A stretch of DNA of 64,000 bases from Arcobacteraceae bacterium (GTDB lineage: Bacteria > Campylobacterota > Campylobacteria > Campylobacterales > Arcobacteraceae), in assembly GCA_963662945.1 (NCBI GenBank), contig OY759974.1, positions 32,001 through 96,000 on the forward strand. Direction: 5' to 3'. This document shows positions 14,201 to 52,931 of the stretch, one piece after another; the stretch's first letter is position 1, and each line of letters starts with the position of its first letter. The translations under genes and the position numbers were made by a program. Below the pieces are notes generated by a model. The model worked only from the letters and a program-made list of their open reading frames with translations. It was not told the origin of the DNA and ran no database searches.

Positions 14201-14476
14201 ATGAAACAAACATTCGTAGTACAAAATGTAAAATGTGGTGGTTGTGCAAACACTTTAAAAAAAGCGCTAAAAGATGATTTTGGTGATATTGAAGTAAATT
14301 TGGAAAAAGAACCACGAGAGATAACTCTTGATATAGAAGATGATAAAAAAGAGCATTTGAAACTCAAACTTAGAAGTTTAGGGTATCCTTTATCTACAGA
14401 TGAACTCTCAACGCTTCAAAGTGTTGGTGCAAAAGCAAAAAGTTTTGTATCTTGTGCTATAGGAAAAATAGACTAA
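14201..14476 (+). CDS. Heavy-metal-associated (HMA) domain protein
   Basis: N-terminal VKCGGCANT (CxxC), LRSLGYP, C-terminal SFVSCAIGK. Confidence 0.85.
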   Translation: MKQTFVVQNVKCGGCANTLKKALKDDFGDIEVNLEKEPREITLDIEDDKKEHLKLKLRSLGYPLSTDELSTLQSVGAKAKSFVSCAIGKID

Positions 14477-15335
14477 AACTTACTAAAAAAAGTAAACTAA
14501 TAACAAAGGTATCTAATCTTTTTTGAAATGAGAGAGCTTTTCTTATGTCACTTGTTTCAATTGTTGTTTTACCATCTCCAAAGTGAGGTTTATGTTTTAT
14601 TACACCAAAATAAGAAGTATCTCCTCCAAGTTTAACATCTAAACTTAATGCCATAGCAGAGATAGGATATCCAGCATTTGGACTTTCGTGAAGTTTTCCA
14701 TATTTTGCAAAGTTTTTTAATGCTTTAGAACTAGTAAATAGTAGTGCAATTAAAACGGCTGTAATTCTCGATGGAATATAGTTTACTATATCATCAAGTT
14801 TTGCTGCTACTTTGCCAAAGTTTTCATATCTAGTGTTTCTATAACCAACCATAGAATCAAGAGTATTAATAGCTTTATAGATAAATAATCCAACAATACC
14901 AAACAATAAAAGATAAAATAGTGGTGCAATAACACCATCACTTAAATTTTCACTATAGGTTTCTATAGCAGCTTTATTTATCTCGCTTGATGAGAGGTTT
15001 TGCGTATCTCTACTTACAAGATATTGTATATTTTGTGGATTGGTAATCACATCTTTGACACTATCATATAACATTTTAGATGCTATACCAAACGAGGCGA
15101 AAAAGGCTAAAATAAAAATATTATCAACAAAATACTCAAGTGTAAAAGTGATACAAAATACGATAAATAATAGTGAAATAGTCAGTAATCCACCTCTTAT
15201 AATACTATCTTTATAAAAGTATTTCTCAAATAAAGAGATAAAATCTCCCATGAAAACGATAGGATGTCTTAAAAATTTAAACTCCCCAAAGATTCTATCT
15301 ATTATATATGCTATTAGGGTTATTTCAATAAACAA
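14457..15335 (-). CDS. cbiB: Adenosylcobinamide-phosphate synthase
   Basis: HPIVFMG, LVSRDT, ENLSDGVIAPLF, YKAINTLDSMVGY, SPNAGYP. Confidence 0.95.
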   Translation of the reverse strand: MFIEITLIAYIIDRIFGEFKFLRHPIVFMGDFISLFEKYFYKDSIIRGGLLTISLLFIVFCITFTLEYFVDNIFILAFFASFGIASKMLYDSVKDVITNPQNIQYLVSRDTQNLSSSEINKAAIETYSENLSDGVIAPLFYLLLFGIVGLFIYKAINTLDSMVGYRNTRYENFGKVAAKLDDIVNYIPSRITAVLIALLFTSSKALKNFAKYGKLHESPNAGYPISAMALSLDVKLGGDTSYFGVIKHKPHFGDGKTTIETSDIRKALSFQKRLDTFVISLLFLVSFSLFFL

Positions 15336-16336
15336 TTTTTTAAACCTATGGCTAGAATATCTAAGTCTTTTTTACTTTTCACTGCAATTCGTACAAAACT
15401 ACTATCCAAAAAGTCAAAATTAGAACAATCTCGTATCATAATTTTATAAGGTTTTAAAAGTTCTTGAAAAGTAGTTGCATCTATCTCTTTTAGCTGAACT
15501 AAAATAAAATTTGCACAAGAATCAATAATATGATGTGTATATTGAAAATCTTTCATAATATGAACTAAATATTCTTTGTTAGTGATGTTTACAGCTTTTG
15601 ATATTTTAGAAAAGTTTTCATCCTTTAAAGCTTGTTGTATATAGTGGCTGTCAAATTGTGATATTTTCCAAAGTGGCTCACAATTTTTAAGACTTTGAAT
15701 ATTAGAACTATTTGAAACTATAAGTCCAAGACGAATACCAGCACTACTATAAAATTTTGTCATGGATTTAAGAATATAAAGCTTATCATATTTTTCTAAA
15801 TACTCTATACAAGATTTATGAGTTGTAAAATCTAAAAATGATTCATCAATGAGTATAGTACAGTTTTTTTGTATCCAAGAGTCCATAAGCTTCTCTATAT
15901 CATAAAAACTCCCCTCCGGAGTACTTGGATTCACAAAGACAACTATCGAGCCCTCTTGAACCTCTTTATGTAGTTCTGTAAAACGATTGATTAATTCAAT
16001 ATGATATCCTTGCATAGAAGCCGTTTTTTTATATTCTAAATAGGCTGGACTGTAAATAGTAATAGTTGTTGCATCAAAAAAACGAAATAAACTCACAATA
16101 GCACTACTACCGCCATTAAACAATTCTATTTGTGAACTATATATATTATAAAGCTTTGCAAGGGCAGAGTACAACGTATCATAGTTTGGATAAGAAGAGA
16201 TATCTAAGTTATTAAAATCAAACTCAAGCTCAGGTTTTAAAAAGTTAATATTGGAAGAAAGATCAATAATCTCTTTAACATCGCAACCAATTTGTGATGC
16301 AAATGCTGTTATATCTCCACCATGTTTAAAGTTCAT
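15320..16336 (-). CDS. cobD: L-threonine-O-3-phosphate decarboxylase (PLP class I/II)
   Basis: HGG, DLSSNIN, NPSTPEG, DESFLDF, SMTKFYSSAGIRLG, IRDCSNF; adjacent to cbiB. Confidence 0.85.
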   Translation of the reverse strand: MNFKHGGDITAFASQIGCDVKEIIDLSSNINFLKPELEFDFNNLDISSYPNYDTLYSALAKLYNIYSSQIELFNGGSSAIVSLFRFFDATTITIYSPAYLEYKKTASMQGYHIELINRFTELHKEVQEGSIVVFVNPSTPEGSFYDIEKLMDSWIQKNCTILIDESFLDFTTHKSCIEYLEKYDKLYILKSMTKFYSSAGIRLGLIVSNSSNIQSLKNCEPLWKISQFDSHYIQQALKDENFSKISKAVNITNKEYLVHIMKDFQYTHHIIDSCANFILVQLKEIDATTFQELLKPYKIMIRDCSNFDFLDSSFVRIAVKSKKDLDILAIGLKNCLLK

Positions 16337-17112
16337 ATATTTTCCAATCTATTTATTAACTCTTGATAATTTCTATTATTTATATATCTTGTAGTAGCAT
16401 AATATACCAAAGCATATTTTATATACTCTTTAAATTTATCTAAAGAGATTACTAATCCATAAGAAGAGAGTAGGGCTTCTATCTTCTCATAGTTTGGCAT
16501 ATCATCATCAAAACACCAAGAAAAGGCAACAACAGCTAAATCAAAAACAAAGTCTCCATTACAAGCTTCACTAAAATCATACACTCCACTTAACTGATCA
16601 TCTTTCCATTTCACATTATCTGGAAAAATATCTCCATGTATTATTCCATCATTTTTTAACTCTATATTTATAGTTTCAAGATGATTTTGTAATATACTTA
16701 TACCCCTTTTATTGATTATATCTTTTAATCTATTTTTATTAAATAATTGAGTGTTATTTGATCTTAAATTGGTTGTTTTAGTATGAAATTGCTTAAGAAG
16801 TAGGGCAAGTTGATTTATGTGTTTTATCTCAGGTTTGTATATACTATGACCTATAATTTGTATATAAAATACACATAAGTAGCCTTTGATATAAATATGT
16901 TCTACATATTGTATAACACTTAATTCTCTAATAGTATTTAACAGACTTATTTCATCTTCAATATTATAGTTAGGTTCATCATAAATCTTTAGTGTATACT
17001 TATCCCCCAATAAGTATACACTACTTTGAACACCATCGATAGTTTCTTTTAGTAGAAATTTTTGATACTTTTTGGGTAAATCTTTTTGAGTTATTTTTAT
17101 CTTTACACCCAA
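16333..17112 (-). CDS. APH/choline-kinase-fold phosphotransferase (type II homoserine kinase-like); candidate L-threonine kinase
   Basis: Brenner motif IHGDIFPDNV, YDFSEAC, DLAV; overlaps bluB and cobD. Confidence 0.8.
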   Translation of the reverse strand: MGVKIKITQKDLPKKYQKFLLKETIDGVQSSVYLLGDKYTLKIYDEPNYNIEDEISLLNTIRELSVIQYVEHIYIKGYLCVFYIQIIGHSIYKPEIKHINQLALLLKQFHTKTTNLRSNNTQLFNKNRLKDIINKRGISILQNHLETINIELKNDGIIHGDIFPDNVKWKDDQLSGVYDFSEACNGDFVFDLAVVAFSWCFDDDMPNYEKIEALLSSYGLVISLDKFKEYIKYALVYYATTRYINNRNYQELINRLENI

Positions 17113-17726
17113 ATTACAACCTCTTCAAACTCTTTTTTCTTTTCCCATTGTAAGGTTTCTAACTCCGGTGTATCTAAAAATTGTTTAGTATATCCAACAC
17201 AAAGATAGCCTATAAGTTTGTATTCATCATTTATATCAAGTATTTGCTGTACTTTTTTATGATTGATGATACTTACCCAACCTATCCCTATATTTAGACT
17301 TCTAGCGTATAACCACATATTTTGGATAGCACACACAACACTGTATTCACCCATTTTTTTAGAACTCGTTTGCCCTAAGACTTTTTTGGTAGGCTTTTTA
17401 TAGAATACTGCAATGTTTAGAGGGGTTTCTTTGATACCTTCAAGTTTTAAAGAGTTATAAAGTTCTCTTTCTTTGAAGTGTTTTTTACTTTTCTCATAGG
17501 ATTTTTTGAAGTTATTATAGATTCTGTTTTTAATCTTTTTATCTTCTATAACTACAAACTTCCAAGGCTGAGAAAAGCCTACAGAGGGTGCATGGATACC
17601 AGCGTTGAGTATCTCTTTGAGGATACTCTTTTTTAGCTTTTTCTTTAAAAAGTTATTACCGCGTACATCTCTTCTATAAAGAATTATATCACTTAGTATT
17701 TTTGATTGTTGTTTTGTAAATATCAT
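17103..17726 (-). CDS. bluB: 5,6-dimethylbenzimidazole synthase
   Basis: RRDVRG, APSVGFSQPW, SLKLEGI, YSVVCAIQNMWL, GIGWVSI. Confidence 0.93.
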   Translation of the reverse strand: MIFTKQQSKILSDIILYRRDVRGNNFLKKKLKKSILKEILNAGIHAPSVGFSQPWKFVVIEDKKIKNRIYNNFKKSYEKSKKHFKERELYNSLKLEGIKETPLNIAVFYKKPTKKVLGQTSSKKMGEYSVVCAIQNMWLYARSLNIGIGWVSIINHKKVQQILDINDEYKLIGYLCVGYTKQFLDTPELETLQWEKKKEFEEVVIWV

Positions 17727-17872
17727 TATTTTTTGATTGTTGTATTACTATCTTGAGAAAAAACTTGGTTTATCTTCTTCCATTTTTCTGTGTGCATATC
17801 ATTCCCTTTATAGAGATAAAAGAGTGCAACGCCTATTAAAAATATCCAAAATAATATATCTGTTAGTTTCAT
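17726..17872 (-). CDS. Unannotated 48-aa single-TM protein MKLTDILFWIFLIGVALFYLYKGNDMHTEKWKKINQVFSQDSNTTIKK
   Basis: Translated by hand. AGGA SD upstream of the ATG, N-terminal hydrophobic helix, stop overlaps the bluB start (TAATG). Confidence 0.7.
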   Translation of the reverse strand: MKLTDILFWIFLIGVALFYLYKGNDMHTEKWKKINQVFSQDSNTTIKK

Positions 17873-17917
17873 TTTAATTCCTATTGTTTTTTATAGCTGA
17901 TTGTTGTTTTATAAACT

Positions 17918-19180
17918 TCATAGAAATTTATCTTTTAAAAGTGCTATATTACCTCTAAACATCGTATGAAGATAAGTACCAAATACATTCTTTTCTTTAT
18001 TTGTCCAACTTCCAACTTTTCCCTCCCCCTTTGGTTGTTTAGATAATATATCAAAGCCTTTACTATCATCAATTGCTTTGGTATAATGAAAGCTGTGCCC
18101 TTTTATTAAAGCTTGATTGTAGTAGTATCCAAGTCTTGTAAATCTTTTTTCTAAAGTAAAATCCACATCTAAAATAGCGCTCATGACTTTTTCATCCACT
18201 TTGTTTCCAAGATACAAAAGCCCTGCACACTCTGCATATATCTTTTTTGTAAGACTATGCTGTATAAGTGAGTTTTTAAACTTAGTGGAGTTTTTTATCT
18301 TTTCATAGGCTTTATCACTCTCTACATAACCACCGCAAATATACACTATATCTGCATCTTTTGGTATCTCTTCATCTCTAACGGCCCTTACGATTGTGAC
18401 TTTTTCAAATACTGTTTTAAAAAACTCTAAATTATCATAGTAAAGAAATGAAAAGTTTTCATCATTGACTATGGCTAGGTGTTTATTTTGTTTTTCTATA
18501 GTTTTAAAAGGGTAAATAGTATTTTTAATTTTTTTTCGTTTTCCTATTTGTTCTAAAGCATTTAAATCTATATGTTCCAAAACCTCTTTACTGATTTGTT
18601 CTATCTTAGATAAATCTTCTAAATCAAGCCCTAAATGAGTATCTTGTAAAGAGACAATACCATTTTGAATCCAGCCAGCAACTACTATATCATCAAAATC
18701 TTTGAGTATTTGTTGTTTAATAAGCTCATAATGCCCCATTGAAGATATTTTATTGAGAACGACAGCTTTTATAGTGTTATCTCTTTTATAGCTTTTAAGC
18801 CCTTTTAAAACAGCACTAACAGTAATATAACTTCCGCTTCCATCTAAAAGTAAAACAGTAGGAATATCTAAAAGTTTTGAAATATCATAGGCACTACTTT
18901 TTTTATCACTACCATCATAAAATCCCATAACACCCTCACAAATAGAGACTTTTTTATCGCTATAGTGGTTAAAAAGCCATTGGATTTGTTTTTTGTTCAT
19001 CATAAATCTATCAAGATTTATACTTGGTGTGCCAGATACTTGTTTGTGAAATTGTGGGTCGATATAATCTGGTCCTATCTTAAAAGGTCGAACAGAATCT
19101 TTATAGTGATAAAGTAGGGCTGTAGTAAGGATTGTTTTGCCTTGATTTGATGCGATTGCACTGATACAAAAAGCTTTCAT
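17918..19180 (-). CDS. cbiA: Cobyrinate a,c-diamide synthase
   Basis: SNQGKT, FKIGPDYID, EGVMGFYDG, FSFLY; glutaminase motifs AECAG and GTYLH. Confidence 0.9.
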   Translation of the reverse strand: MKAFCISAIASNQGKTILTTALLYHYKDSVRPFKIGPDYIDPQFHKQVSGTPSINLDRFMMNKKQIQWLFNHYSDKKVSICEGVMGFYDGSDKKSSAYDISKLLDIPTVLLLDGSGSYITVSAVLKGLKSYKRDNTIKAVVLNKISSMGHYELIKQQILKDFDDIVVAGWIQNGIVSLQDTHLGLDLEDLSKIEQISKEVLEHIDLNALEQIGKRKKIKNTIYPFKTIEKQNKHLAIVNDENFSFLYYDNLEFFKTVFEKVTIVRAVRDEEIPKDADIVYICGGYVESDKAYEKIKNSTKFKNSLIQHSLTKKIYAECAGLLYLGNKVDEKVMSAILDVDFTLEKRFTRLGYYYNQALIKGHSFHYTKAIDDSKGFDILSKQPKGEGKVGSWTNKEKNVFGTYLHTMFRGNIALLKDKFL

Positions 19181-20124
19181 GAATTTTTCCTTTTAGTTAA
19201 TAGCAGATATATAAAGAAAGGTGCTCCTACAAATGATGTTACCACACCAATTGGTATATCAGAAGTTGCACCTGTATTTCTTGCAATTACATCACATAAA
19301 ACTAAAAATACTCCTCCATAAAAGAAAATAGGTAGTATGAGCTTATCTGCACTTGTTTTAGCGATAATTTTAATGATATGTGGAATAATAAGTCCAACAA
19401 AACCTATGGGTCCAGTTATACTTACACAAATACCAACAACAATAGAAACACTCAATAACAATATATAGTTTGTTTTTTTAACATTAATCCCTTTTAATGT
19501 GGCAAAATCATAAGAGGTTAAAAGAAGTTTTATATGATATTGGTATCTTTTGACAATACTCAAGATAAAAAGAGCAGCAAGTATAACTAGATATATAGAG
19601 TTAAAACCAACAATATCCAAACTTCCCATAGTAAAACGTACTATCTCATAACTCTCTTGTAAATCACTAATAAAAAACAATACCATTAAACTAGCACTAT
19701 AAAAAAATGACAATGCAATACCAACTAAAAGAAGTGATGATGTTTGTGCCCCATGAAATCTAGCTGCAATTAAAAAAAGCAAGATGATAGTTAAAACAGC
19801 TCCCATAAATGCAAATAAAGAGATAAAAGCTACAAAACCAAATACTATTCCTATAGCTGTAAAAAGTGTTGCTCCACTTGCAACTCCCAATGTAAATGGT
19901 GTACTCATAGGATTTCTAAAGATTGTTTGAAAAACCAAACCACTTAAAGCAAGTATTGCACCAACACAAAAAGCTAAAACAACTCTTGGAAGTCGAATAT
20001 CCCAAAAAATTTGATAATCCATTTTAGAGGGTTCAAAAATATTTGTTAATGTAAGATCAATTTGACCATTAAAAGGTGCTATGGCTATGATAATAAGAGA
20101 GAGTAATATAAATAAAAACTTCAT
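19177..20124 (-). CDS. btuC: FecCD-family ABC permease (BtuC-like)
   Basis: IRLPRV, FRNPM, GPIGFVGLIIPH, IPIGVVTSFVGAPFF; in a corrinoid operon. Confidence 0.85.
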   Translation of the reverse strand: MKFLFILLSLIIIAIAPFNGQIDLTLTNIFEPSKMDYQIFWDIRLPRVVLAFCVGAILALSGLVFQTIFRNPMSTPFTLGVASGATLFTAIGIVFGFVAFISLFAFMGAVLTIILLFLIAARFHGAQTSSLLLVGIALSFFYSASLMVLFFISDLQESYEIVRFTMGSLDIVGFNSIYLVILAALFILSIVKRYQYHIKLLLTSYDFATLKGINVKKTNYILLLSVSIVVGICVSITGPIGFVGLIIPHIIKIIAKTSADKLILPIFFYGGVFLVLCDVIARNTGATSDIPIGVVTSFVGAPFFIYLLLTKRKNS

Positions 20125-20810
20125 AGATTTACCAATATATTGTTATCAACTTTTTTGACACTCTCATCAAAAAAGTTTTGTAAATTAGAGTCAGAAAAAA
20201 ACTCTTCATTTGAACCATAATATTTTATCTGACCATTTTCAATAAAAAGTATCTCAAATCCAAGTTGAAATGCTAAATTTAAATTATGAGTGATGATAAT
20301 TTTATTTTGAAGATAATCCTCATTTTGAAGAAGATTAAATATAGTTTTTACCCTTTTAGGATCAAGATTTGAAGTTGGTTCATCCAAAATAGTATATTTT
20401 GCATTGTGTAAAATTGCACTTGCCATTGAAACAAGTTGGGACTCCCCACTACTTAAATATTTACAAGGTTTTTCTTTCAAATACGCGATATTAAGATTTT
20501 CCAAAATAGAATCAATGGTAAAACTTGTATGAAATAGACTTAATTGGAGAAACTCCGCAACTGTTAAATACTCATCAAAAATCTCTAAGTGTGATGGAAT
20601 ATAGTTGATAAGTTTAACTTTTTCTTCACCATAGGTTTTAGAAGGTTCTAAATTATTGATTTGAACACAATTACTTGGAATAATACCTGATAATACTTTT
20701 GCAATGGTTGTTTTACCAGCACCATTATTTCCAAGTATTATGAGATTACTTTTAAGTGAAAATGAAATATCTTGTAATATAAAATTACTGTAGTTTTTTA
20801 TCTCTAGCAT
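20121..20810 (-). CDS. btuD: ABC transporter ATPase (BtuD-like)
   Basis: Walker A GNNGAGKT, signature LSSGE, Walker B ILDEPTSNLD, H-loop ITH. Confidence 0.85.
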   Translation of the reverse strand: MLEIKNYSNFILQDISFSLKSNLIILGNNGAGKTTIAKVLSGIIPSNCVQINNLEPSKTYGEEKVKLINYIPSHLEIFDEYLTVAEFLQLSLFHTSFTIDSILENLNIAYLKEKPCKYLSSGESQLVSMASAILHNAKYTILDEPTSNLDPKRVKTIFNLLQNEDYLQNKIIITHNLNLAFQLGFEILFIENGQIKYYGSNEEFFSDSNLQNFFDESVKKVDNNILVNL

Positions 20811-21621
20811 TTGCTAAAAATCCTTTAAAATCTTCTAAAAAATATATCAGTCTATGGCTTGCAATTCCAGCATAATGTTTATCAATCATATAAATGTTAT
20901 TTGTTTTAGTAGCATTTATAGGTAATTTTAGCCAAGGGTTGATAAGTTGTTCACAAGTGAGATGTTTATCTTCTCTAAAAGGGGCAAGAAGTATCACTAT
21001 ATCTGGATTGGTTGCTATGATATTTTCCATATTTAAAATAGGTTGACCAACTCTATTACTTTTAAAAGCATTTGTATTTCCACTTTGATTGATAATATCA
21101 TCAAAATAGAGATTTTGACCAGCTACAAAAATCCGTTTTTCTAACGATACATTATGACCAATCACCATAAGTATTTTCTGATTTTTTATAATGTTTTGTA
21201 TCTCTTGTAGTTTTGTGTTTAAAGTATTTAAAATCTCTTGTGCTTTTTGTTGCTTATTGAGAATTTCACCAATGGTTTGTATACTTTTTTTAATATCTTC
21301 TAAGGTCTTCAAACTTAAAACTTGTGTAGAGATTCCTAGTTGTTGTAGTTTGTGTGATAGTTCAAGACTACTTTGTTGCATTATCACCATATCAGGTTTC
21401 AAACTTAAAATTTTTTCTAAAGAGGGAGAAAAATATCCCCCAACTTTTGGTTTTGATTGTGCATTTTGAGGAAAAGTACAATGAGTAGTATTCCCCACAA
21501 TTTTATCTCCACTTTCTAATGCATAAATAATCTCATTGATAGATGGACTTAAAGCTATGATTCTCTCATAAGAGAATAGATTAGTAACTAATACAAAGAG
21601 AATAAGAAACTTTAATTGCAT
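20785..21621 (-). CDS. btuF: Periplasmic corrinoid-binding protein (BtuF-like)
   Basis: Signal peptide, RIIALSPSINEII, SLEKILSLKPD, NPDIVIL; probable start ATG 21621 overlapping the end of the upstream gene. Confidence 0.85.
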   Translation of the reverse strand: MQLKFLILFVLVTNLFSYERIIALSPSINEIIYALESGDKIVGNTTHCTFPQNAQSKPKVGGYFSPSLEKILSLKPDMVIMQQSSLELSHKLQQLGISTQVLSLKTLEDIKKSIQTIGEILNKQQKAQEILNTLNTKLQEIQNIIKNQKILMVIGHNVSLEKRIFVAGQNLYFDDIINQSGNTNAFKSNRVGQPILNMENIIATNPDIVILLAPFREDKHLTCEQLINPWLKLPINATKTNNIYMIDKHYAGIASHRLIYFLEDFKGFLANARDKKLQ

Positions 21622-21974
21622 GATGCAGCTTTGTAGCAATCTTCAACTTTATAAATCCAAGTCATCGTTTTATTGTCATGAAGTTTATAGTTTGATGCCA
21701 TTTTATGAACACTTTGAGCATCAATAAGATAAAACCATCCATATTTCCCTTTTTGTGATAATTTCCCATTAATTGAACGAACAAAGTTGTATTTACCTGT
21801 TTTTGAAGTTTCTATTGTAGCAACTCTATCAAGAATACTTAAAGCAGTTTCACCATTTTCATAGGTTGTTTTCACAACTGTATCTGCTCTATTATCATCA
21901 TAAACGATAGTCACTGTTAACTCATTTGCAAATATATTAAGTACTAAAAAAGCGATAAGAAGAAACTGTTTCAT
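21612..21974 (-). CDS. Secreted DUF4430 / transcobalamin C-terminal-like beta-domain protein
   Basis: Signal peptide; GETALSIL ... FVRSING ... GWFYLID ... ASNYKL..N.TMTWIY pattern; lies between btuB and btuF. Confidence 0.75.
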   Translation of the reverse strand: MKQFLLIAFLVLNIFANELTVTIVYDDNRADTVVKTTYENGETALSILDRVATIETSKTGKYNFVRSINGKLSQKGKYGWFYLIDAQSVHKMASNYKLHDNKTMTWIYKVEDCYKAASCN

Positions 21975-23782
21975 TAGAAGCTAACCTTTATACCTGCATA
22001 ATATGCTCTTGGACTTGTAGCATATCCATTGACTGTTTGATAATATTTATTGGTAATATTATCACATTTCCCATAAAGTTTTAAATTCTTAGTTAAATCA
22101 TAGTTTATAACAAAGTTCATAACTGTATATCTACCAGTTTGAGCACTTACTGTATGTGTACCATAAGTATATTCAACTCTTTCCCCTACATACTCTCCAT
22201 TTAATCCAAAATGTAGTTTAGTAACTCCATAATAATCAACACCAAATTTTAAATTTTCTTTTGGAACTCTTTGCAGTTGATATCCATCATTATCTATTGC
22301 TTTATTTCTTGTATAATTAAGATTTAGTAGTGTATTTGCTAAGATATTTTTTTGATATGCTATTTCATATCCTTTTAGTCGTGTTGTCCCATCTAGATTA
22401 CCATATTTTGAAATACCGCTATCATAATCAATCATATCTTTTACTTTATTATAAAAGTAAGTAATCTGTAAATCTTTATATTCTACTGAGATATCATACG
22501 ATTGTGTTGTTTCTGGTTTTAAATTTTCATTTCCATAAGTAGAATAAAGATTGTAAAGTGTCGGTACATTATAAGCTGTCCCAGCGTTTGTACTCAAAGA
22601 TAAATCTTCATTAAAATTATGTTTTAATCCAATTTTTCCAGTTGTTTTATTATCAAATTTATTGTAATGATCAACTCTTACAGATTCAGTAAGGATTGTG
22701 TTATTTATTTTATTGTTGTTTGTTACAAATACAGCTTTGTTATTGTACTTTTGATTTATAGTATTTGTGTGTTCAAAATCTTTATAATCAGTTCCAACTA
22801 TCACAAATGAACTTTCATTTAAATAGGAGAAATTTGTTCTAACACCATATTCATTTACTTTCCCATCAAACTCTGAAATAGTACCGTTTGCATTGTTTTC
22901 TCTATCAAAAACTGATTTATTGTATTGTACAATTGTTGTAGATATTGCATTTTTGTTTTCATAAGTGATGTTACTAAAGCTATCATCTGTAAGCATTTCA
23001 TAACCATTTTGCAGTGTTACAGATTTATCATATTCACTTCTTGCATCTATTTTTGTATGAGAGATATCAAATTTATTATTATCATCTATATTTACACCAG
23101 CTTTGATACTTGATGTTGTATTTTCATATTTGTCATCTTCATAACTATTTATATCATTACCTTTAGTAGCTCGTGATGTAAAGCCATCTGTTTTTAGCTT
23201 TTGTGAATTGAGTTTCAGATAGTAGTTATTCGTTTTATAGGAAGCAGTTGCTCCATATTTTCTCGTATTGAAGCTTCCAAACTCTGCATCAATTTCTCCA
23301 GAAAGACCTTTTGGTGGTGTTTTTGTTATGATATTAATCACCCCAGCACTAGCATCTGCACCCCAAATACCACTTTGAGCACCTTTGATAATCTCTATTT
23401 TTGATATATCTGTTACCATTAAATGTTCAAATGGTGCACCATTAAGACCTGTAATATCATTGTATCTTATACCATCAATAAGTACTAAAACTCGCTTACT
23501 ATCAAAACCTCTAAGTCTCACTGAAGTTGTGCTTCCAGGTCCTCCATTTGCTGTAAAACTTATACCACTAATAAGGTTTAAAGCATCACTTACATTTGTA
23601 ATATGTTTTTCTTCTAGTTCTGTTGCTGTAATCACATCAATATTTGATGTTACATCTTTGATTGATTGTTCCGATTTAGTAGCACTTGAAACTGTTATTG
23701 TTCCTAAGTCTTCATTTGCATTTATTATTGTAGCCGTACAAAATAAACTAGCCACTAGGCTTAGTTTTATTGTTTTTGTCAT
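21974..23782 (-). CDS. btuB: TonB-dependent outer-membrane receptor (BtuB-like)
   Basis: TonB box TITVSS, plug motifs LRGFDSKRVLVLIDG and IEIIKGAQSGIWGADASAGVINIITK, C-terminal Phe; first gene of the B12 operon. Confidence 0.85.
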   Translation of the reverse strand: MTKTIKLSLVASLFCTATIINANEDLGTITVSSATKSEQSIKDVTSNIDVITATELEEKHITNVSDALNLISGISFTANGGPGSTTSVRLRGFDSKRVLVLIDGIRYNDITGLNGAPFEHLMVTDISKIEIIKGAQSGIWGADASAGVINIITKTPPKGLSGEIDAEFGSFNTRKYGATASYKTNNYYLKLNSQKLKTDGFTSRATKGNDINSYEDDKYENTTSSIKAGVNIDDNNKFDISHTKIDARSEYDKSVTLQNGYEMLTDDSFSNITYENKNAISTTIVQYNKSVFDRENNANGTISEFDGKVNEYGVRTNFSYLNESSFVIVGTDYKDFEHTNTINQKYNNKAVFVTNNNKINNTILTESVRVDHYNKFDNKTTGKIGLKHNFNEDLSLSTNAGTAYNVPTLYNLYSTYGNENLKPETTQSYDISVEYKDLQITYFYNKVKDMIDYDSGISKYGNLDGTTRLKGYEIAYQKNILANTLLNLNYTRNKAIDNDGYQLQRVPKENLKFGVDYYGVTKLHFGLNGEYVGERVEYTYGTHTVSAQTGRYTVMNFVINYDLTKNLKLYGKCDNITNKYYQTVNGYATSPRAYYAGIKVSF

Positions 23783-23816
23783 TATTTTCCCTTAAAATTT
23801 TAATTGTGAATATTTG

Positions 23817-23987
23817 TTAATAATTAAAAGTTAAAAAGGGAGGAGAGGTTTTATATTCCTGATATTCAAAGGCTTTAAGATGGTATTGTTGATTTGCATC
23901 GATTGTACATAGTTTGTACATTGTAGAATACATAGCAATAATTGCTAAACTAAAGTATCGTTTACCATAACCTCTTAAGTGTTTCAT
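23817..23987 (-). CDS. Putative leader peptide (uORF), 56 aa, ending ...EYKTSPPFLTFNY
   Basis: ATG 7 nt after ggTAAAAT (23995-24000, minus strand) with no SD; fills the btuB 5' region; Pro-Pro codons are complementary to the btuB SD. Confidence 0.6.
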   Translation of the reverse strand: MKHLRGYGKRYFSLAIIAMYSTMYKLCTIDANQQYHLKAFEYQEYKTSPPFLTFNY

Positions 23988-23994
23988 AACGCGG

Positions 23995-24029
23995 ATTTTA
24001 CCCAATAGTTACTTATTTTTAGGTATAAT
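23995..24029. promoter_or_regulatory. Back-to-back sigma70 -10 boxes (TAAAAT on minus for uORF/btuB; TATAAT on plus for cvfB)
   Basis: Both fit gnTAnAAT and lie 6-7 nt upstream of an ATG. Confidence 0.65.
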
Positions 24030-24035
24030 CTCATT

Positions 24036-24881
24036 ATGATAAACGAACACATACAATTAGGTGAGATGAACACCCTAAAAATCAACAGAATAACAGAACC
24101 AGGTATTTACTTAGAAGCCTTAGATGAAGAGGTGGTACTTTTACCAAATGCTTATATTACTCCTTCTATGCAAGTAGATGATGAGCTAGAAGTTTTTATA
24201 TATACAGATAGTGAAGATAGATTAGTTGCAACAACACAAATGCCTTATGGTATGAAAAATCAATTTATGTTTACAAAAGTTGTAGATACAACTAATTTTG
24301 GGGCTTTTGTAGACTGGGGATTACAAAAAGATTTATTTGTACCTAAAAATAGACAAAAAACACCTTTTAGAGTAGGGGAATCACGAATTGTTAGAATTGT
24401 AGAAGATGAAGAAACTTCAAGACTTATTGGTGTAGAAAAAATCACTTCTTATTTAAGCAATGAAACACAAAATCTAGCAAAAAATCAAGAAGTAGAAATA
24501 CTCCTTTTTGCTAAAACACCGATGGGATATAAAGTAATCATCAATGATACTTATGAAGGTATGATATATAAGAATGAAATCTTTAGTGATGTAAATGTGG
24601 GTGAAAAACTTAAAGCGTATATCAAAAATATAAGAGATGATAAAAAAGTAGATGTATCACTGCAACCAATTGGGAAAAACAATGCAGATGATATTAATAC
24701 AAAAAAAGTATTAGATGTATTAGAGCAAAATTTCAATGACTTACCATATAATTACAAAACAGATGCAGATACTATCAAAGAGCTTTTTGGTATCAGTAAA
24801 AAAGCTTATAAAAGAGCTTTAACAAAACTTGTAGAAGACAATATTATAAAGCTAGATGATGAGGGTATGAGTAAGATTTAA
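24036..24881 (+). CDS. cvfB: S1-domain RNA-binding protein, CvfB family
   Basis: VFIYTDSEDRLVAT, GAFVDWGLQKDLFVP, FGISKKAYKRAL. Confidence 0.88.
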   Translation: MINEHIQLGEMNTLKINRITEPGIYLEALDEEVVLLPNAYITPSMQVDDELEVFIYTDSEDRLVATTQMPYGMKNQFMFTKVVDTTNFGAFVDWGLQKDLFVPKNRQKTPFRVGESRIVRIVEDEETSRLIGVEKITSYLSNETQNLAKNQEVEILLFAKTPMGYKVIINDTYEGMIYKNEIFSDVNVGEKLKAYIKNIRDDKKVDVSLQPIGKNNADDINTKKVLDVLEQNFNDLPYNYKTDADTIKELFGISKKAYKRALTKLVEDNIIKLDDEGMSKI

Positions 24882-24911: not shown

Positions 24912-26468
24912 ATGAATAATAAACTAAATTTAGAAACACTAGAAAAATGGCTTTGGGATAGTGCCAACATATTAAGAGGGCATATAGACTCAAGCGATTT
25001 TAAAAACTATATTTTTGGTTTAATGTTTTTAAAAAGAGCTAGCGACCAATTTTTTGAAGAAGCAAAAATAGCTGTTGAAAAAGAGGGAATTGATTTAGAA
25101 GAAGCCATTGAGGACGAAGATTATCATAGATTTTTTATTCCTAAAACTGCATGGTGGAGTGAAATTGCCAAAAAAACTGAAAATATTGGTCAAGCCATAG
25201 ACCAAGCTTTTTCTTCAATAGAAGAATATAACTCTTCTTTAGAGGGAGTTATGACAGCTGTTCATTTTGGAGATAGTGAGAAACTTCCTGATAGTTTATT
25301 ATCAAGACTTTTACAACACTTCAATAAATATTCTTTAGCAAATAGCGACCTTGAAAATCCTGATATTTTAGGAAACTCTTATGAGTATTTGATAAGACAA
25401 TTTGCCGACGATAGTGGAAAAAAAGGTGGAGAGTTCTATACTCCAAAAGAGGTTGTTCAACTACTTGTGCAACTTATTAAGCCAGAAGCTGGAAATAGTA
25501 TCTACGACCCAACTTGTGGTTCAGGTGGAATGTTAATCGAATCAGCTCACTATATCGCAAAAAATGGTGGAATGTTGGGTGAATATGTAAACTGTACACT
25601 AAAAGGTCAAGAAAAAAATCTAGGAACTTGGGCTGTTTGTAAAATCAATATGATAGTTCATAACTTCAAAGATAGCGATATAAGAAAGGGCGATACTTTA
25701 GGAAGCCCAAAACATATCATAAATGGAGAACTTGAAACTTTTGATAGGGTTATTGCTAATCCTCCATTTTCACTTTCAAACTGGTGGGAATCAGCAGAAG
25801 TTGATATAAAAAATGACGCAAAAGGTAAACCTATAACTCCTAAATACAACGATTTAGTATCAGACGAATATGGAAGATTTAAGTATGGTATTCCTCCAAG
25901 AAGTTATGGGGATTTAGCATTTTTACAACACATGTTAAGTGTACTAAAACAAAATGGAAAAATGGGAATAGTTTTACCCCATGGAGTTTTATTTAGGGGC
26001 TCAAGTGAGGGGAAAATCAGAGAGGCACTTTTAAAAGAAGATTTAATAGAAGCTATTATTGGACTTCCTGAAAAACTATTTTACAATACAGGAATCCCTG
26101 CAAGTATCATAATCATAAATAAATCTAAACCACAAAATCTAAAAAACAAAGTTATCATAATAGACGCTTCAAAAGAGTATAAAGAGGGTAAAAATCAAAA
26201 TACTCTAAACCCTGAAAGTATTGAAAAAACAGTAATTGCTTATGAATCTATGCAAGATATAGAAAAGTTTATGAGAATCGTTGATTTAGAAGAAATCAAA
26301 GAAAACGAATACAATCTAAATATAGCAAGATATATAGATACAAGTAGCGAAGAAGTGATAATAAATATCGAAAATGTAATAAATAAAATAGCCCATATTG
26401 AAGAGAAAGAAAAAGAGATTGATTCTAAGTTAAATGAATATTTAAGAACTTTAGGGTTTGTGTTATGA
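24912..26468 (+). CDS. hsdM: Type I restriction-modification methyltransferase subunit
   Basis: GEFYTP, YDPTCGSGGML, catalytic ANPPF, VLPHGVLFRG, YNLNIARYI. Confidence 0.97.
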   Translation: MNNKLNLETLEKWLWDSANILRGHIDSSDFKNYIFGLMFLKRASDQFFEEAKIAVEKEGIDLEEAIEDEDYHRFFIPKTAWWSEIAKKTENIGQAIDQAFSSIEEYNSSLEGVMTAVHFGDSEKLPDSLLSRLLQHFNKYSLANSDLENPDILGNSYEYLIRQFADDSGKKGGEFYTPKEVVQLLVQLIKPEAGNSIYDPTCGSGGMLIESAHYIAKNGGMLGEYVNCTLKGQEKNLGTWAVCKINMIVHNFKDSDIRKGDTLGSPKHIINGELETFDRVIANPPFSLSNWWESAEVDIKNDAKGKPITPKYNDLVSDEYGRFKYGIPPRSYGDLAFLQHMLSVLKQNGKMGIVLPHGVLFRGSSEGKIREALLKEDLIEAIIGLPEKLFYNTGIPASIIIINKSKPQNLKNKVIIIDASKEYKEGKNQNTLNPESIEKTVIAYESMQDIEKFMRIVDLEEIKENEYNLNIARYIDTSSEEVIINIENVINKIAHIEEKEKEIDSKLNEYLRTLGFVL

Positions 26469-27721
26469 GTAATTTGCCTAAAGGTTGGGAATTAGTTACT
26501 TTAGAATCAGTAACTAATAAAATGCAATCGGGTGGTACCCCTAAATCTACGAATGAAGATTTTTATAATGGTAAAATCCCTTTTGTTAAAATAGAAGATA
26601 TAACTTCTTGTAAAAAATTTTTAACAAAAACAAAAATAACAATTAATGAAGAAGGATTAAAAAATAGTAGTGCATGGCTAGTACCAAAAGATTCTATTTT
26701 ATACTCAATGTATGCTTCTTTAGGATTTTTAGCAATCAATAAAATACCTGTTTCTACAAATCAAGCTATTATGAATATTATTCCAAATTCTGAAAAAATT
26801 GATTTAGAATACTTATATCAATTTTTATTAGATTTAAAAAATAAAATTGACAAATTTATCGACCAAACAACTCAAAAAAATTTAAATGCTCAAAAAGTTA
26901 AGAATTTTCTTATTCCTCTTCCACCCCTTGAAGAACAAAAGAAAATCGCTGATATTTTAAGTACAGTTGATAAAAAAATAGCTTTTGTAGAAGAAAATAT
27001 AAATGCAACAGAAGAGCTAAAAAAAGGTTTAATGCAAAAACTTCTCACAGAGGGAATCTGTCATACAGAGTTTAAAGATAGCGAACTTGGTAGAATTCCT
27101 GAAAGTTGGGAGGTTGTACCATTTATTGAATTAGCAGATAAAAATATTAAGCATTCTTTTACAGGAGGACCTTTTGGCTCTGATTTAAAAAGTGAACATT
27201 ATACAGATATTGGAGTTAGAGTTATTCAACTTCAAAATATTGGTGACGGTTATTTTATAAATAATGATTTTGTATATGTTTCTGAAGAAAAAGCTGAATC
27301 ATTAAAATCTTGCCAAATTTACCCAAACGATATAATACTTGCAAAAATGGCTGAACCTGTTGCCAGAGCTTGTTTAATTCCTGATATTGAAAGCAAATAT
27401 ATTATGTGTTCAGACGGTATTCGTTTAAAAGTAGATAATTCAAAATTTAATACAGAATTTATTTTTTATTCAATTAATTATGATAATTTTAGAAAAATTG
27501 CAGTGGCAAGAAGTACGGGAACAACGAGATTAAGAATTGGTTTAAGTGCTTTAAAATCTATACCAATAGTTATTCCTCCACTTGAAGAACAAAAACAAAT
27601 AGCAGAAATTCTTTCAACAGTTGATAATAAATTAGAAAATTTAAAAGAAAAAAAACAATCTTTTGAAAATCTAAAAAAAGGTTTAATGCAAAAACTACTT
27701 ACTGGAGAGGTTAGGGTTTAA
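26465..27721 (+). CDS. hsdS: Type I R-M specificity subunit with two TRDs
   Basis: LPKGW / IPESW, and PPLEEQK.IA.ILSTVD ... LKKGLMQKLLT present twice. Confidence 0.96.
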   Translation: MSNLPKGWELVTLESVTNKMQSGGTPKSTNEDFYNGKIPFVKIEDITSCKKFLTKTKITINEEGLKNSSAWLVPKDSILYSMYASLGFLAINKIPVSTNQAIMNIIPNSEKIDLEYLYQFLLDLKNKIDKFIDQTTQKNLNAQKVKNFLIPLPPLEEQKKIADILSTVDKKIAFVEENINATEELKKGLMQKLLTEGICHTEFKDSELGRIPESWEVVPFIELADKNIKHSFTGGPFGSDLKSEHYTDIGVRVIQLQNIGDGYFINNDFVYVSEEKAESLKSCQIYPNDIILAKMAEPVARACLIPDIESKYIMCSDGIRLKVDNSKFNTEFIFYSINYDNFRKIAVARSTGTTRLRIGLSALKSIPIVIPPLEEQKQIAEILSTVDNKLENLKEKKQSFENLKKGLMQKLLTGEVRV

Positions 27722-27722
27722 T

Positions 27723-28790
27723 ATGGAGTTTATACCAAACAACTTACCCCTTGATATAGATATTGAAACAAAAGCTATACTAAAAAAATCAATTTTGGCA
27801 AATAAAGCACTTGCAAAACTTAATGGTGTAGCTAAAATCATACCTAATCAGGCTATTTTGATAAACTCTTTGATTTTACAAGAAGCAAAAGATAGTTCTG
27901 AAATTGAGAATATCATAACTACCCATGACGAACTATATCAATCAAGTTTGGATATTTCAAATATTTCTCACGCCACAAAAGAAGTACAAAGTTATAGCAG
28001 AGCCTTATTAAAAGGTTTTGATTTGGTTAAAGAGACTTCTTTACTTCTAACTCGGCATATTGTAGATATTCAACAAGAACTAGAGGGAAATGTTGCAGGT
28101 ATTAGAAAACAAGCTGGAACAGTTCTAAAAAATCTCGCATCTGGTGAAGTGATTCATACTCCACCACAAGAAGAATCAACTATAAGAAAACTTCTTGATA
28201 ATCTTGAACAGTATATAAATACAAATGACGGAATAGACCCACTTATTAAAATGGCAATTATTCATTATCAATTTGAAACTATTCACCCATTTTATGACGG
28301 TAATGGAAGAACTGGAAGAATTATAAATATTTTGTATTTGGTTTTAAATGAGCTTTTAGATTTACCAATTTTGTATTTAAGTAGTTATATTATCAAACAT
28401 AAAGCTGATTATTACAGACTCTTACAAGAGGTGAGAACCAAAGGAAGTTGGGAAGAGTGGATTATTTATATGCTTGAGGGAATTGAACAAACAGCGACTA
28501 AACAAGTTCAATTAATCAATGATATAAAAGAGTTAATGGATAACACAAAAGAAAAACTAAAATCTGAACTTCCAAAGATTTACTCAAAAGACCTTTTAGA
28601 AGTATTGTTCATTCACCCTTATACAAAAATTGATATGTTGGTGGATAATTTGGAACTTCATAGAGATACCGCAAGTAAGCATTTAAAATCTATGGAAAAA
28701 ATTGGTATTTTAAATAGTGTACAAATTAAAAACAGTAAATTTTATGTAAATGTAAAACTTTTTGAACTTCTTCAAAAAGGTTTTTTATAA
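27723..28790 (+). CDS. Fic-family AMP transferase (class II) with C-terminal wHTH-like region
   Basis: Canonical HPFYDGNGRTGR; N-terminal inhibitory motif SSEIEN; C-terminal RDTASKHLKSMEKIGIL. Confidence 0.93.
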   Translation: MEFIPNNLPLDIDIETKAILKKSILANKALAKLNGVAKIIPNQAILINSLILQEAKDSSEIENIITTHDELYQSSLDISNISHATKEVQSYSRALLKGFDLVKETSLLLTRHIVDIQQELEGNVAGIRKQAGTVLKNLASGEVIHTPPQEESTIRKLLDNLEQYINTNDGIDPLIKMAIIHYQFETIHPFYDGNGRTGRIINILYLVLNELLDLPILYLSSYIIKHKADYYRLLQEVRTKGSWEEWIIYMLEGIEQTATKQVQLINDIKELMDNTKEKLKSELPKIYSKDLLEVLFIHPYTKIDMLVDNLELHRDTASKHLKSMEKIGILNSVQIKNSKFYVNVKLFELLQKGFL

Positions 28791-52856: not shown

Positions 52857-52931
52857 TCCGGCATAGCTCAGCGGTAGAGTAGATGACTGTTAATCATTTG
52901 GTCCCTGGTTCGATCCCAGGTGCCGGAGCCA
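52857..52931 (+). tRNA. tRNA-Asn (GTT)
   Basis: Acceptor stem TCCGGCA/TGCCGGA, anticodon loop CTGTTAA, T-arm CCTGG-TTCGATC-CCAGG, encoded CCA; TATAAT at 52835-52840. Confidence 0.98.

Follow-up and report, generated by a model that had tools for sequence, protein, structure and literature searches.

To our knowledge, cobalamin riboswitches are regarded as the near-universal bacterial control of vitamin B12 uptake, B12 synthesis and metE. In leader peptides of the SecM, MifM, VemP, TnaC and ErmCL type, the nascent chain controls a downstream gene through ribosome occupancy, either by remodelling a helix that masks the Shine-Dalgarno (SD) sequence or by blocking Rho, and the RAPP/RGPP arrest peptides are also known upstream of sec/yidC genes. 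Here an upstream open reading frame (uORF) of 56 codons is described, which lies ahead of a btuB-like receptor gene in a stretch of 64,000 nucleotides (nt) from an Arcobacteraceae genome (hereafter the window, whose numbering is used for positions unless another contig or locus is named). Based on the results of this study, we estimate at about 0.6 the probability that this uORF is a translated cis-acting leader of a family marking the B12 regulon in its order of Campylobacterota, and that it works as a CruR-like nascent-peptide regulator. The B12 regulon here consists of the btuB/btuFCD uptake and salvage operons, metE, and the cbiM-cbiK cobalamin biosynthesis genes.

The closest known system is CruR (DUF2946), a copper-responsive uORF that heads a TonB-dependent transporter operon in Bordetella pertussis; in the available sections of its description it carries an export signal as well as a sensor motif that a spacer of fixed length (45 residues) separates from a C-terminal Pro-Pro (PP) motif, and copper relieves the arrest, after which Rho terminates (PMC9426467). 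As far as those sections go, the present family shares this architecture: a small ORF stands first in an operon that includes a TonB-dependent transporter, the encoded N-terminus is a putative export-type segment, a conserved motif keeps a constant distance to a Pro-Pro that lies a few residues short of the C-terminus, the leader RNA is C-rich and, as proposed here for B12, a pathway ligand switches the operon off. However, it falls outside the sequence definitions of both CruR and RAPP. In Pfam, DUF2946 was matched neither by the leader of 56 amino acids (aa) nor by a 113-aa relative in the same genome, and the CXXC sensor is missing from the short form, the window leader having one non-conserved Cys. 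The spacers measure 37-39 residues from Tyr-Phe (YF) to PP and, in long leaders, 36-39 from CxC to PP, compared with 45 in the CruR account; the window leader has KTSPP and its relatives xAPP or VHPP, not RAPP. The window spacer to the receptor gene is 34 nt and includes a predicted SD-sequestering helix, while that account gives 162 nt for CruR and Rho termination without coupling. The pathway is putatively B12 here and copper in CruR, and the putative leaderless initiation of the window leader sets it apart from CruR and the RAPP/RGPP uORFs alike.

RAPP/RGPP uORFs upstream of TonB-dependent receptors are a reported class, nearly all with signal sequences, and an AAPP variant of ApdP gave mostly full-length product (PMC12992588, in the passages available). 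By those passages the window leader resembles the class as a uORF-encoded small protein with a possible localisation signal and a C-proximal Pro-Pro, also before a TonB-dependent receptor. It differs in that the defining Arg-Ala/Gly-Pro-Pro (or RAGP/RAPG) is missing from its K-T-S-P-P, and the RAPP-like arrest motifs cited as precedent in a preliminary description of this DNA need an Arg that KTSPP lacks. The same passages mention copper and metal homeostasis; cobalamin, B12 and methionine synthase were not found in them, and the supplementary lists may hold Campylobacterota cases. In the Mycobacterium tuberculosis metE B12 riboswitch, translation of a uORF takes part in B12 control (PMC11260477); the sensing there, according to the portion available, is done by a riboswitch, and none is detectable in the window leader. 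Cobalamin riboswitches (RF00174, RF01482, RF01689) stand where the present leader does and presumably govern an equivalent regulon (btuB, metE, cob/cbi, cobalt transport), but they are RNA aptamers whereas the present element is a translated ORF that none of the models matches. The SecM, MifM, VemP, TnaC and ErmCL peptides have other sequences and respond to secretion force, tryptophan or macrolides, with no link to B12. Literature searches, supplementary files not covered, found no peptide leader described for B12 genes.

The uORF and its parts are as follows.
23817..23987, minus strand: leader ORF (uORF), 56 codons plus stop (ATG 23987-23985, TAA 23819-23817).
23931..23972, minus strand: N-terminal motif G-Y-G-K-R-Y-F-S-L-A-I-I-A-M, codons 6-19, from alignment A1.
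23838..23843, minus strand: Pro49-Pro50 codons (CCU CCC), candidate pause site, from the sequence.
23995..24000, minus strand: -10-like hexamer TAAAAT, ending 7 nt before the uORF ATG, no SD.
The coordinates, the quoted strings and the N-terminus given in the preliminary description proved correct on the minus strand; the version of an ORF lister is longer (62 aa, TTG-extended, 23817..24005). The KTSPP, described as C-terminal, is present (K46 to P50) but lies near rather than at the C-terminus, six further residues preceding the stop.

The uORF is conserved and coding. The receptor orthologues comprised 29 loci from relatives, with receptors 36-65% identical, and the window locus. Among these 30 loci, a script pattern recognised, upstream of 27 receptor genes, an ORF carrying the N-terminal motif of the window leader; locus L011 (loci are numbered with L) also has a leader, which the pattern missed, and none was recognised at L027 and L030, where the gene starts are uncertain. 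Codon usage was compared in 17 PP-type sequences that align gapless over 50 codons, leaving out L020 (identical to L019) and the divergent L022, L025 and L026. Entropy by codon position was 0.36/0.32/0.97, the numbers of variable columns were 24, 22 and 47 of 50, and the Nei-Gojobori proportions of synonymous (pS) and nonsynonymous (pN) differences were 0.673 and 0.134 (pN/pS 0.20), with pN<pS in 136/136 pairs. Ser codons alternate between AGY and UCN among the orthologues. The third-position variability, the excess of pS over pN and the switching of Ser boxes therefore indicate selection on the peptide and not on the RNA. The frame stays open and under purifying selection in relatives despite a GC content of 29%, and the uORF is almost certainly translated.

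It could be argued that a B12-binding RNA of a kind not yet recognised overlaps the ORF, the open frame being incidental. The leader region is conserved and Rfam is limited to described families, but the variation sits in third codon positions with Ser codons switching boxes, the frame remains open at 29% GC across such distant receptors, the whole 223-nt leader folds with z -1.52 (18/200 shuffles as good) and no Rfam match appeared at E<=10, which makes this explanation highly improbable. Cobalamin models gave nothing in 23600-24200 even at E<=10. No cobalamin riboswitch family reached the Rfam gathering score in the 64-kb window or in the 29 orthologous loci, and RF00174, RF01482 and RF01689 had no match at E<=1 in the complete 2.5-Mb source genome. 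RF00174 was found in 0/151 genomes of the order and in 0/151 of a phylum-level sample drawn largely from the same families; as controls, it was matched in 8/14 well-known genomes, and samples of more than 40 genomes were searched with stricter filters by which weak matches can be lost. The absence of a cobalamin riboswitch from the btuB leader, asserted in the preliminary description from the lack of a recognisable motif, was thus borne out, and the searches support the view that the translated leader stands in place of a riboswitch.

The link to the B12 regulon came from the other members of the family. A hidden Markov model (HMM) of the leader, run against all ORFs of 30-150 aa in the source genome, matched exactly two, the window uORF and the following ORF.
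C1 2429233-2429574 (L031 3234-3575), minus strand: 113-aa metE leader, 61 nt upstream of metE.
This second leader shares the N-terminal motif, which is followed by an acidic run up to a PP and, at the C-terminus, by a module rich in Cys and His whose last residues are H-P-P; it matched zero Pfam families, and the MetE encoded after it scored 1079 bits against NF003556 (cut-off 541). The profile of alignment A1 (20 leaders) found a match at E<=0.01 in 197/301 genomes of the order, many with two or three, and 60 contexts were hand-picked among the matches listed (150 of 287). In a first sample of 40 loci, long leaders precede MetE in 20, short or long leaders precede receptor (+BtuF, ABC, FecCD, CobB) operons in 13, short PP-type leaders precede a CbiM-CbiK-tetrapyrrole methylase-kinase row in L056 and, by ORF sizes only, in L057, and the motif is the N-terminus of the receptor itself in nine (L048, L061-L067, L070; L070 has an additional long leader at the contig end). 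A second sample of 20 loci gave MetE in 3, receptor operons in 13 and CbiM-CbiK-methylase(-CbiC) in 4. The totals for the 60 contexts are therefore 23 MetE, 26 receptor/BtuF transport operons, 6 cbi operons (5/6 by Pfam matches) and 9 fused receptors, some loci having two leaders, and no unrelated gene class stood behind a leader in these contexts, picked among the matches listed. The leader is first on the operon strand in 59/60; in L056 a second leader is internal, after the cbi genes and before a receptor. When the loci were ascertained from metE instead, a leader was upstream in 22/30. The idea first proposed, peptide-based control of a B12 operon, gains strength from the finding that leaders of this family stand before metE and cbi operons as well.

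The leaders share the N-terminal motif K/R-x-Y-F-S/T-L-A-x-I, and Y11 and F12 of the window leader are invariant in alignment A1. The short PP type, to which the window leader belongs, reads M-K-H-L-R/K-G-Y/F-G-K-R-Y-F-S-L-A-I-I-A, a variable stretch, K-T-S-P-P (or Q-A-P-P, L-A-P-P) and 2-11 further residues; T-S-P-P and V-H-P-P occur as PP contexts in other relatives. From the Tyr of YF to the first Pro there are 37-39 residues in 30/30 leaders of this type, and 38 in the window; the xPP motif, whose conservation the preliminary description had proposed to check, is thus conserved, at a fixed distance from the N-terminal motif. A short type without PP (type 2) keeps K-K-Y-F-T-x-F-G-I-L-A; in seven such loci L-K-P-x-K is conserved 43-44 residues after the motif, and between the stop and the receptor start there are -4 to 22 nt. 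Long leaders (106-120 aa) consist of three peptide modules: the N-terminal motif; an acidic run ending in D/S/E-P-P, 39-43 residues past that motif; and K-P-C-H-C-N-C ... I-P-R-C-P-Y-Y ... F-R-R-T-G-V-H-P-P, in which the first Cys of CxC and the last PP are 36-39 residues apart in 22/22. Their codon-position entropy is 1.08/0.95/1.48, the third position being highest in all three segments. A PDB profile search with the long leaders gave nothing at E<=1, the ESM Atlas gave no usable match for the metE leader, and an AF2 model of a long leader had low confidence (predicted local distance difference test 63, predicted template modelling score 0.33). In the metE loci L076-L080, L083, L086-L088, L090 and L093 the leader consists of the C-terminal module only (CxC ... 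F-R-R-T/S-G-x-H-P-P), with no YF motif. The family thus combines its modules in different ways, and another signal may be read by the third module. PP is absent from type-2 leaders and from several fused receptors and so cannot be the mechanism in every case, which suggests that the N-terminal motif, rather than SPP, is the common functional element of the family.

In other families of the order the leader motif is the N-terminus of full-length receptors, the nine listed above, and for this reason the uORFs may derive from, or share their origin with, the receptor signal-peptide region. In the fused receptors L065 and L066 the motif is followed by an acidic stretch that closes with T-P-P. The N-terminus of the window leader is basic and then hydrophobic, and one could suppose that the ORF encodes a small exported or membrane protein of corrinoid uptake or handling and not a regulator. 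The homology to that signal-peptide-like segment, the conservation over the whole length and not just in a C-terminal arrest segment, and the entry of the ORF as a hypothetical protein in public records would all agree with such a protein. However, the ORF also precedes metE, which encodes a cytoplasmic enzyme, and cbi biosynthesis genes; it comes first on the operon strand almost without exception, mostly with 15-60 nt up to the following start; every regulated operon has a separate copy, and the C-terminal modules of these copies differ; the hydrophobic stretch is short and interrupted by polar residues in many members; and the long form has no confident fold. We consider a structural or transport role of this kind improbable. 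No Pfam or NCBIfam family matched the 56-aa leader, and the 161 clusters of its peptide in a large protein collection are all unnamed or 'hypothetical', the named members being all Campylobacterota.

The operon set also bears on the signal. In mgtL-type leaders PP codons read proline or elongation factor P (EF-P) status, and btuB/btuFCD, metE and cbi are together the classical B12-riboswitch regulon. A signal other than B12, i.e., cobalt, methionine/homocysteine, secretion stress, or proline/EF-P status through the PP codons, would be in agreement with the cobalt-handling CbiM and CbiK and with the Cys/His-rich module of the long metE leaders (CxCxC ... C-P-Y-Y ... H-P-P), which is separable from the N-terminal motif and may read another signal. 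But cobalt or methionine each explains only part of the operon set, the set as a whole corresponds to the riboswitch regulon, and the N-terminal motif is the element common to the three operon types, so that such a signal appears distinctly improbable. The uORF has no run of codons for a regulating amino acid of the kind found in trpL/hisL-type attenuation leaders.

Initiation signals were surveyed in 62 leaders, with the following counts.
Short PP-type leaders (n=30): TANNNT in 27, SD-like sequence in 3.
Short leaders without PP (n=10): TANNNT in 0, strong SD-like sequence in 9.
Long leaders (n=22): TANNNT in 1, strong SD-like sequence in 16.
TANNNT stands 5-8 nt ahead of the start in 27/30 short PP-type leaders, compared with 708/6447 ATGs (11%) in the same loci. 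The guess that the uORF is leaderless, made from the window alone, gains support from these relatives, and its transcript probably begins at or beside the ATG; TAAAAT was absent from the output of a sigma-70 scan when a -35 was required. Start codons of the long leaders were ATG in 6, GTG in 8 and TTG in 8.

The preliminary description had also predicted a hairpin between the uORF tail and the receptor SD, with these arms.
23836..23841, minus strand: UCCCUU, 5' arm of the outer helix (anti-SD), from the fold.
23822..23829, minus strand: UUUUAAUU, 5' arm of the inner helix, codons T-F-N-Y, from the fold.
23798..23805, minus strand: AAUUAAAA, 3' arm of the inner helix, within the 34-nt spacer, from the fold.
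23788..23793, minus strand: AAGGGA, receptor SD and 3' arm of the outer helix, 5 nt before the receptor ATG (23782).
The two-helix hairpin is the minimum free energy (MFE) fold of 23865-23770 (-8.7 kcal/mol). In folds of the single loci, assessed partly by eye, the uORF tail pairs with the SD region in most PP-type loci, often through different sequences. The complementarity was measured with RNAduplex by pairing the final 33 nt of the uORF, extended by 8 nt wherever space allowed, with the 18 nt ahead of the start; the 54 loci used have gaps of at least 18 nt. The mean duplex energy was -7.28 kcal/mol; dinucleotide shuffles of the tail averaged -5.59 and an internal segment of the uORF -4.30, and p<0.05 was obtained in 17/54 loci; since related loci are not independent, Wilcoxon values for this test overstate the case. 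Eight loci with shorter gaps, all without PP, were left out, their stops lying -4 to 17 nt from the next start. A composition of C>G was found in the leader RNA of 57/62 loci and in the following gene of 10/62; C-rich, G-poor RNA is typical of Rho loading sites. Longer spacers (58-129 nt; L017, L019, L028, L043, L052, L053) hold a GC-rich hairpin, behind which a U-run gives an intrinsic-terminator-like arrangement in L017, L019 and L028, and some members with long spacers may attenuate transcription rather than mask the SD. Between the window uORF and btuB there is no terminator-like site.

The enriched complementarity and the short or overlapping stop-start distances would also fit plain translational coupling, in which constitutive translation of the leader opens the SD hairpin and B12 is sensed elsewhere, a trans-acting protein or small RNA acting on transcription or on leader initiation, and the peptide motif serving export or turnover. 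The short leader has no evident ligand-binding feature, the AF2 model of the long one is of low confidence, and the CruR export signal is dispensable for regulation in the published sections available (PMC9426467). On the other hand, the N-terminal motif is under purifying selection before three operon types and occurs nowhere else in the source genome, its spacing from PP deviates from 38 residues by no more than 1, and the leaderless short form offers a trans-acting factor no 5' untranslated region. On balance, coupling alone seems unlikely.

We infer, with considerable confidence, that the nascent-peptide leader regulates the operon downstream of it in cis and, with moderate confidence, that it acts through a PP pause and the SD helix; B12 is the probable signal and would switch the operon off. 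The proposed sequence of events is the following. The mRNA would start at or beside the leader AUG, and the nascent peptide would carry the conserved K-R-Y-F-S-L-A-I-I-A, homologous to the receptor signal-peptide region of other lineages. The ribosome shelters a nascent chain of roughly 38 residues; the Pro-Pro comes exactly 38 residues on, and for this reason the motif would be at, or leaving, the exit tunnel when PP is decoded. A ribosome on the segment from PP to the stop would melt the tail-SD helix and permit initiation at btuB, and the same ribosome would cover the C-rich, G-poor leader RNA, perhaps blocking Rho. B12 status would be read via the nascent N-terminal motif, directly or through a binding factor, altering the duration or frequency of ribosome occupancy on that segment. 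More tentatively, the nascent K/R-x-Y-F-S/T-L-A-x-I might itself be the corrinoid sensor at the tunnel exit, in a switch that would have replaced the riboswitch for the whole B12 regulon across the order and would sit in the receptor signal peptide of some lineages; an equally tentative part of this idea is that, during the stay of the ribosome on Pro-Pro, the motif would bind the cofactor or a partner loaded with it.

Several results weigh against regulation by a paused nascent peptide. The source genome encodes EF-P, by which ordinary xPP pauses are normally relieved, and KTSPP is not a RAPP-like motif. The type-2 leaders and several fused receptors have no PP, some metE leaders are a Cys-rich C-terminal module without the N-terminal motif, and 8/30 metE loci lack a leader. 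We chose the contexts ourselves among 150 of 287 matches, and the genomes, being related, do not count as independent. In the window, both the receptor and its BtuF-like partner score under the NCBIfam cut-offs for BtuB and BtuF. Regarding the SD-burying hairpin, the part of the preliminary description that stands is the MFE fold and, across 54 loci, the enriched tail-SD complementarity, as would be expected of an SD-masking coupled uORF. In the window, however, the hairpin is no better than dinucleotide shuffles (z -0.66; 42/200 as good), and the tail-SD duplex reaches -8.4 versus -8.1 kcal/mol for shuffles (p=0.41). The expected anti-SD covariation was not seen: among 14 close orthologues RNAalifold gave no consensus structure, and the two helices together had 69.9% of cells paired versus 70.7% in shuffles, with no covariation. 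The inner helix had 79.5% of cells paired and zero compensatory changes in the same orthologues; because its 5' arm is itself coding, conservation of that arm is not assignable to RNA structure alone.

A translated leader ORF is thus shared by operons that are usually under riboswitch control, while the 151 genomes sampled from the order yielded no riboswitch. If the interpretation as a nascent-peptide regulator is true, this would be the first peptide-based control of a vitamin regulon and, after copper and CruR, the second ligand class for uORFs combining a sensor with PP. It would explain regulation of the B12 economy in Campylobacterota, and the motif would provide a simple sequence marker for predicting B12-related genes in their genomes. 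The leader system is small, modular and partly leaderless.

The divergent intergenic region containing the uORF (23783-24035) lies between a CvfB-like S1-domain gene and the minus-strand operon, in a source genome of 2.5 Mb with 28.9% GC.
24036-24881, plus strand: CvfB-like S1-domain gene, from ORF and domain scan.
21974..23782, minus strand: TonB-dependent receptor, BtuB-like, 602 aa, with its own signal-like N-terminus, from Pfam Plug and beta-barrel domains.
14457..21974, minus strand: remaining operon genes, DUF4430, BtuF-like, ABC ATPase, FecCD permease, CobB, BluB, kinase, CobD-like, CbiB.
The receptor is followed in order by DUF4430, the BtuF-like periplasmic binding protein, the ABC ATPase, the FecCD permease and CobB, and after a short gap by BluB, the kinase, the CobD-like decarboxylase and CbiB. 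CobB, BluB and CbiB score above curated NCBIfam cut-offs; the CobD-like and BtuF-like proteins are below theirs. The top NCBIfam model of the receptor is the TonB-B12 equivalog TIGR01779, at 286.6 bits and thus under the cut-off of 599.7, and because of this the B12 assignment rests mainly on the operon partners, i.e., DUF4430, BtuF-like, CobB, BluB, CobD-like and CbiB. Besides MetE, the source genome encodes MetH.

At 23781-23810 (minus strand) a sigma-70 scan gave TTCACA-18-AATAAT, ending at the receptor ATG; a transcript from there would have no SD, and for this reason it is probably a chance match in AT-rich DNA. On the plus strand, an HsdM-type N6-DNA methylase gene (Pfam N6_Mtase, HsdM_N) followed by two ORFs occupies 24912-28790, probably a type I restriction-modification system adjoining the leader region. 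A tRNA at 52857-52928 (plus strand) was the sole Rfam match at gathering score in the window.

Two further ideas were abandoned. A stand-alone 135-aa ORF (C1 761008-761415) with a weak match to the B12-binding region of the MetH model (E 1.8e-4, 19 bits, under the cut-off) was considered as a trans-acting sensor and dropped because of its neighbours: after it come ORFs of 454, 391 and 525 aa, and by ORF sizes and order this stretch (C1 756887-761415, minus strand) resembles a row of genes for a B12-dependent mutase. Control by queuosine, through the B12-dependent QueG and Tyr/His/Asn/Asp codons, was set aside after inspection by eye, the choice of NAU or NAC being unconserved among the 17 aligned sequences and type-2 leaders unenriched.

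Among the relatives, the metE leader and the receptor leader are divergent neighbours on one short promoter region in L068 and L069. A conserved ORF of about 183-189 aa stands behind many receptors (L032, L052, L058, L061-L065, L067-L069); the three copies scanned (L061, L065, L067) matched no Pfam family. A BacA-family protein imports B12 in mycobacteria, and in L067 an SbmA/BacA-like transporter gene is found near this ORF.

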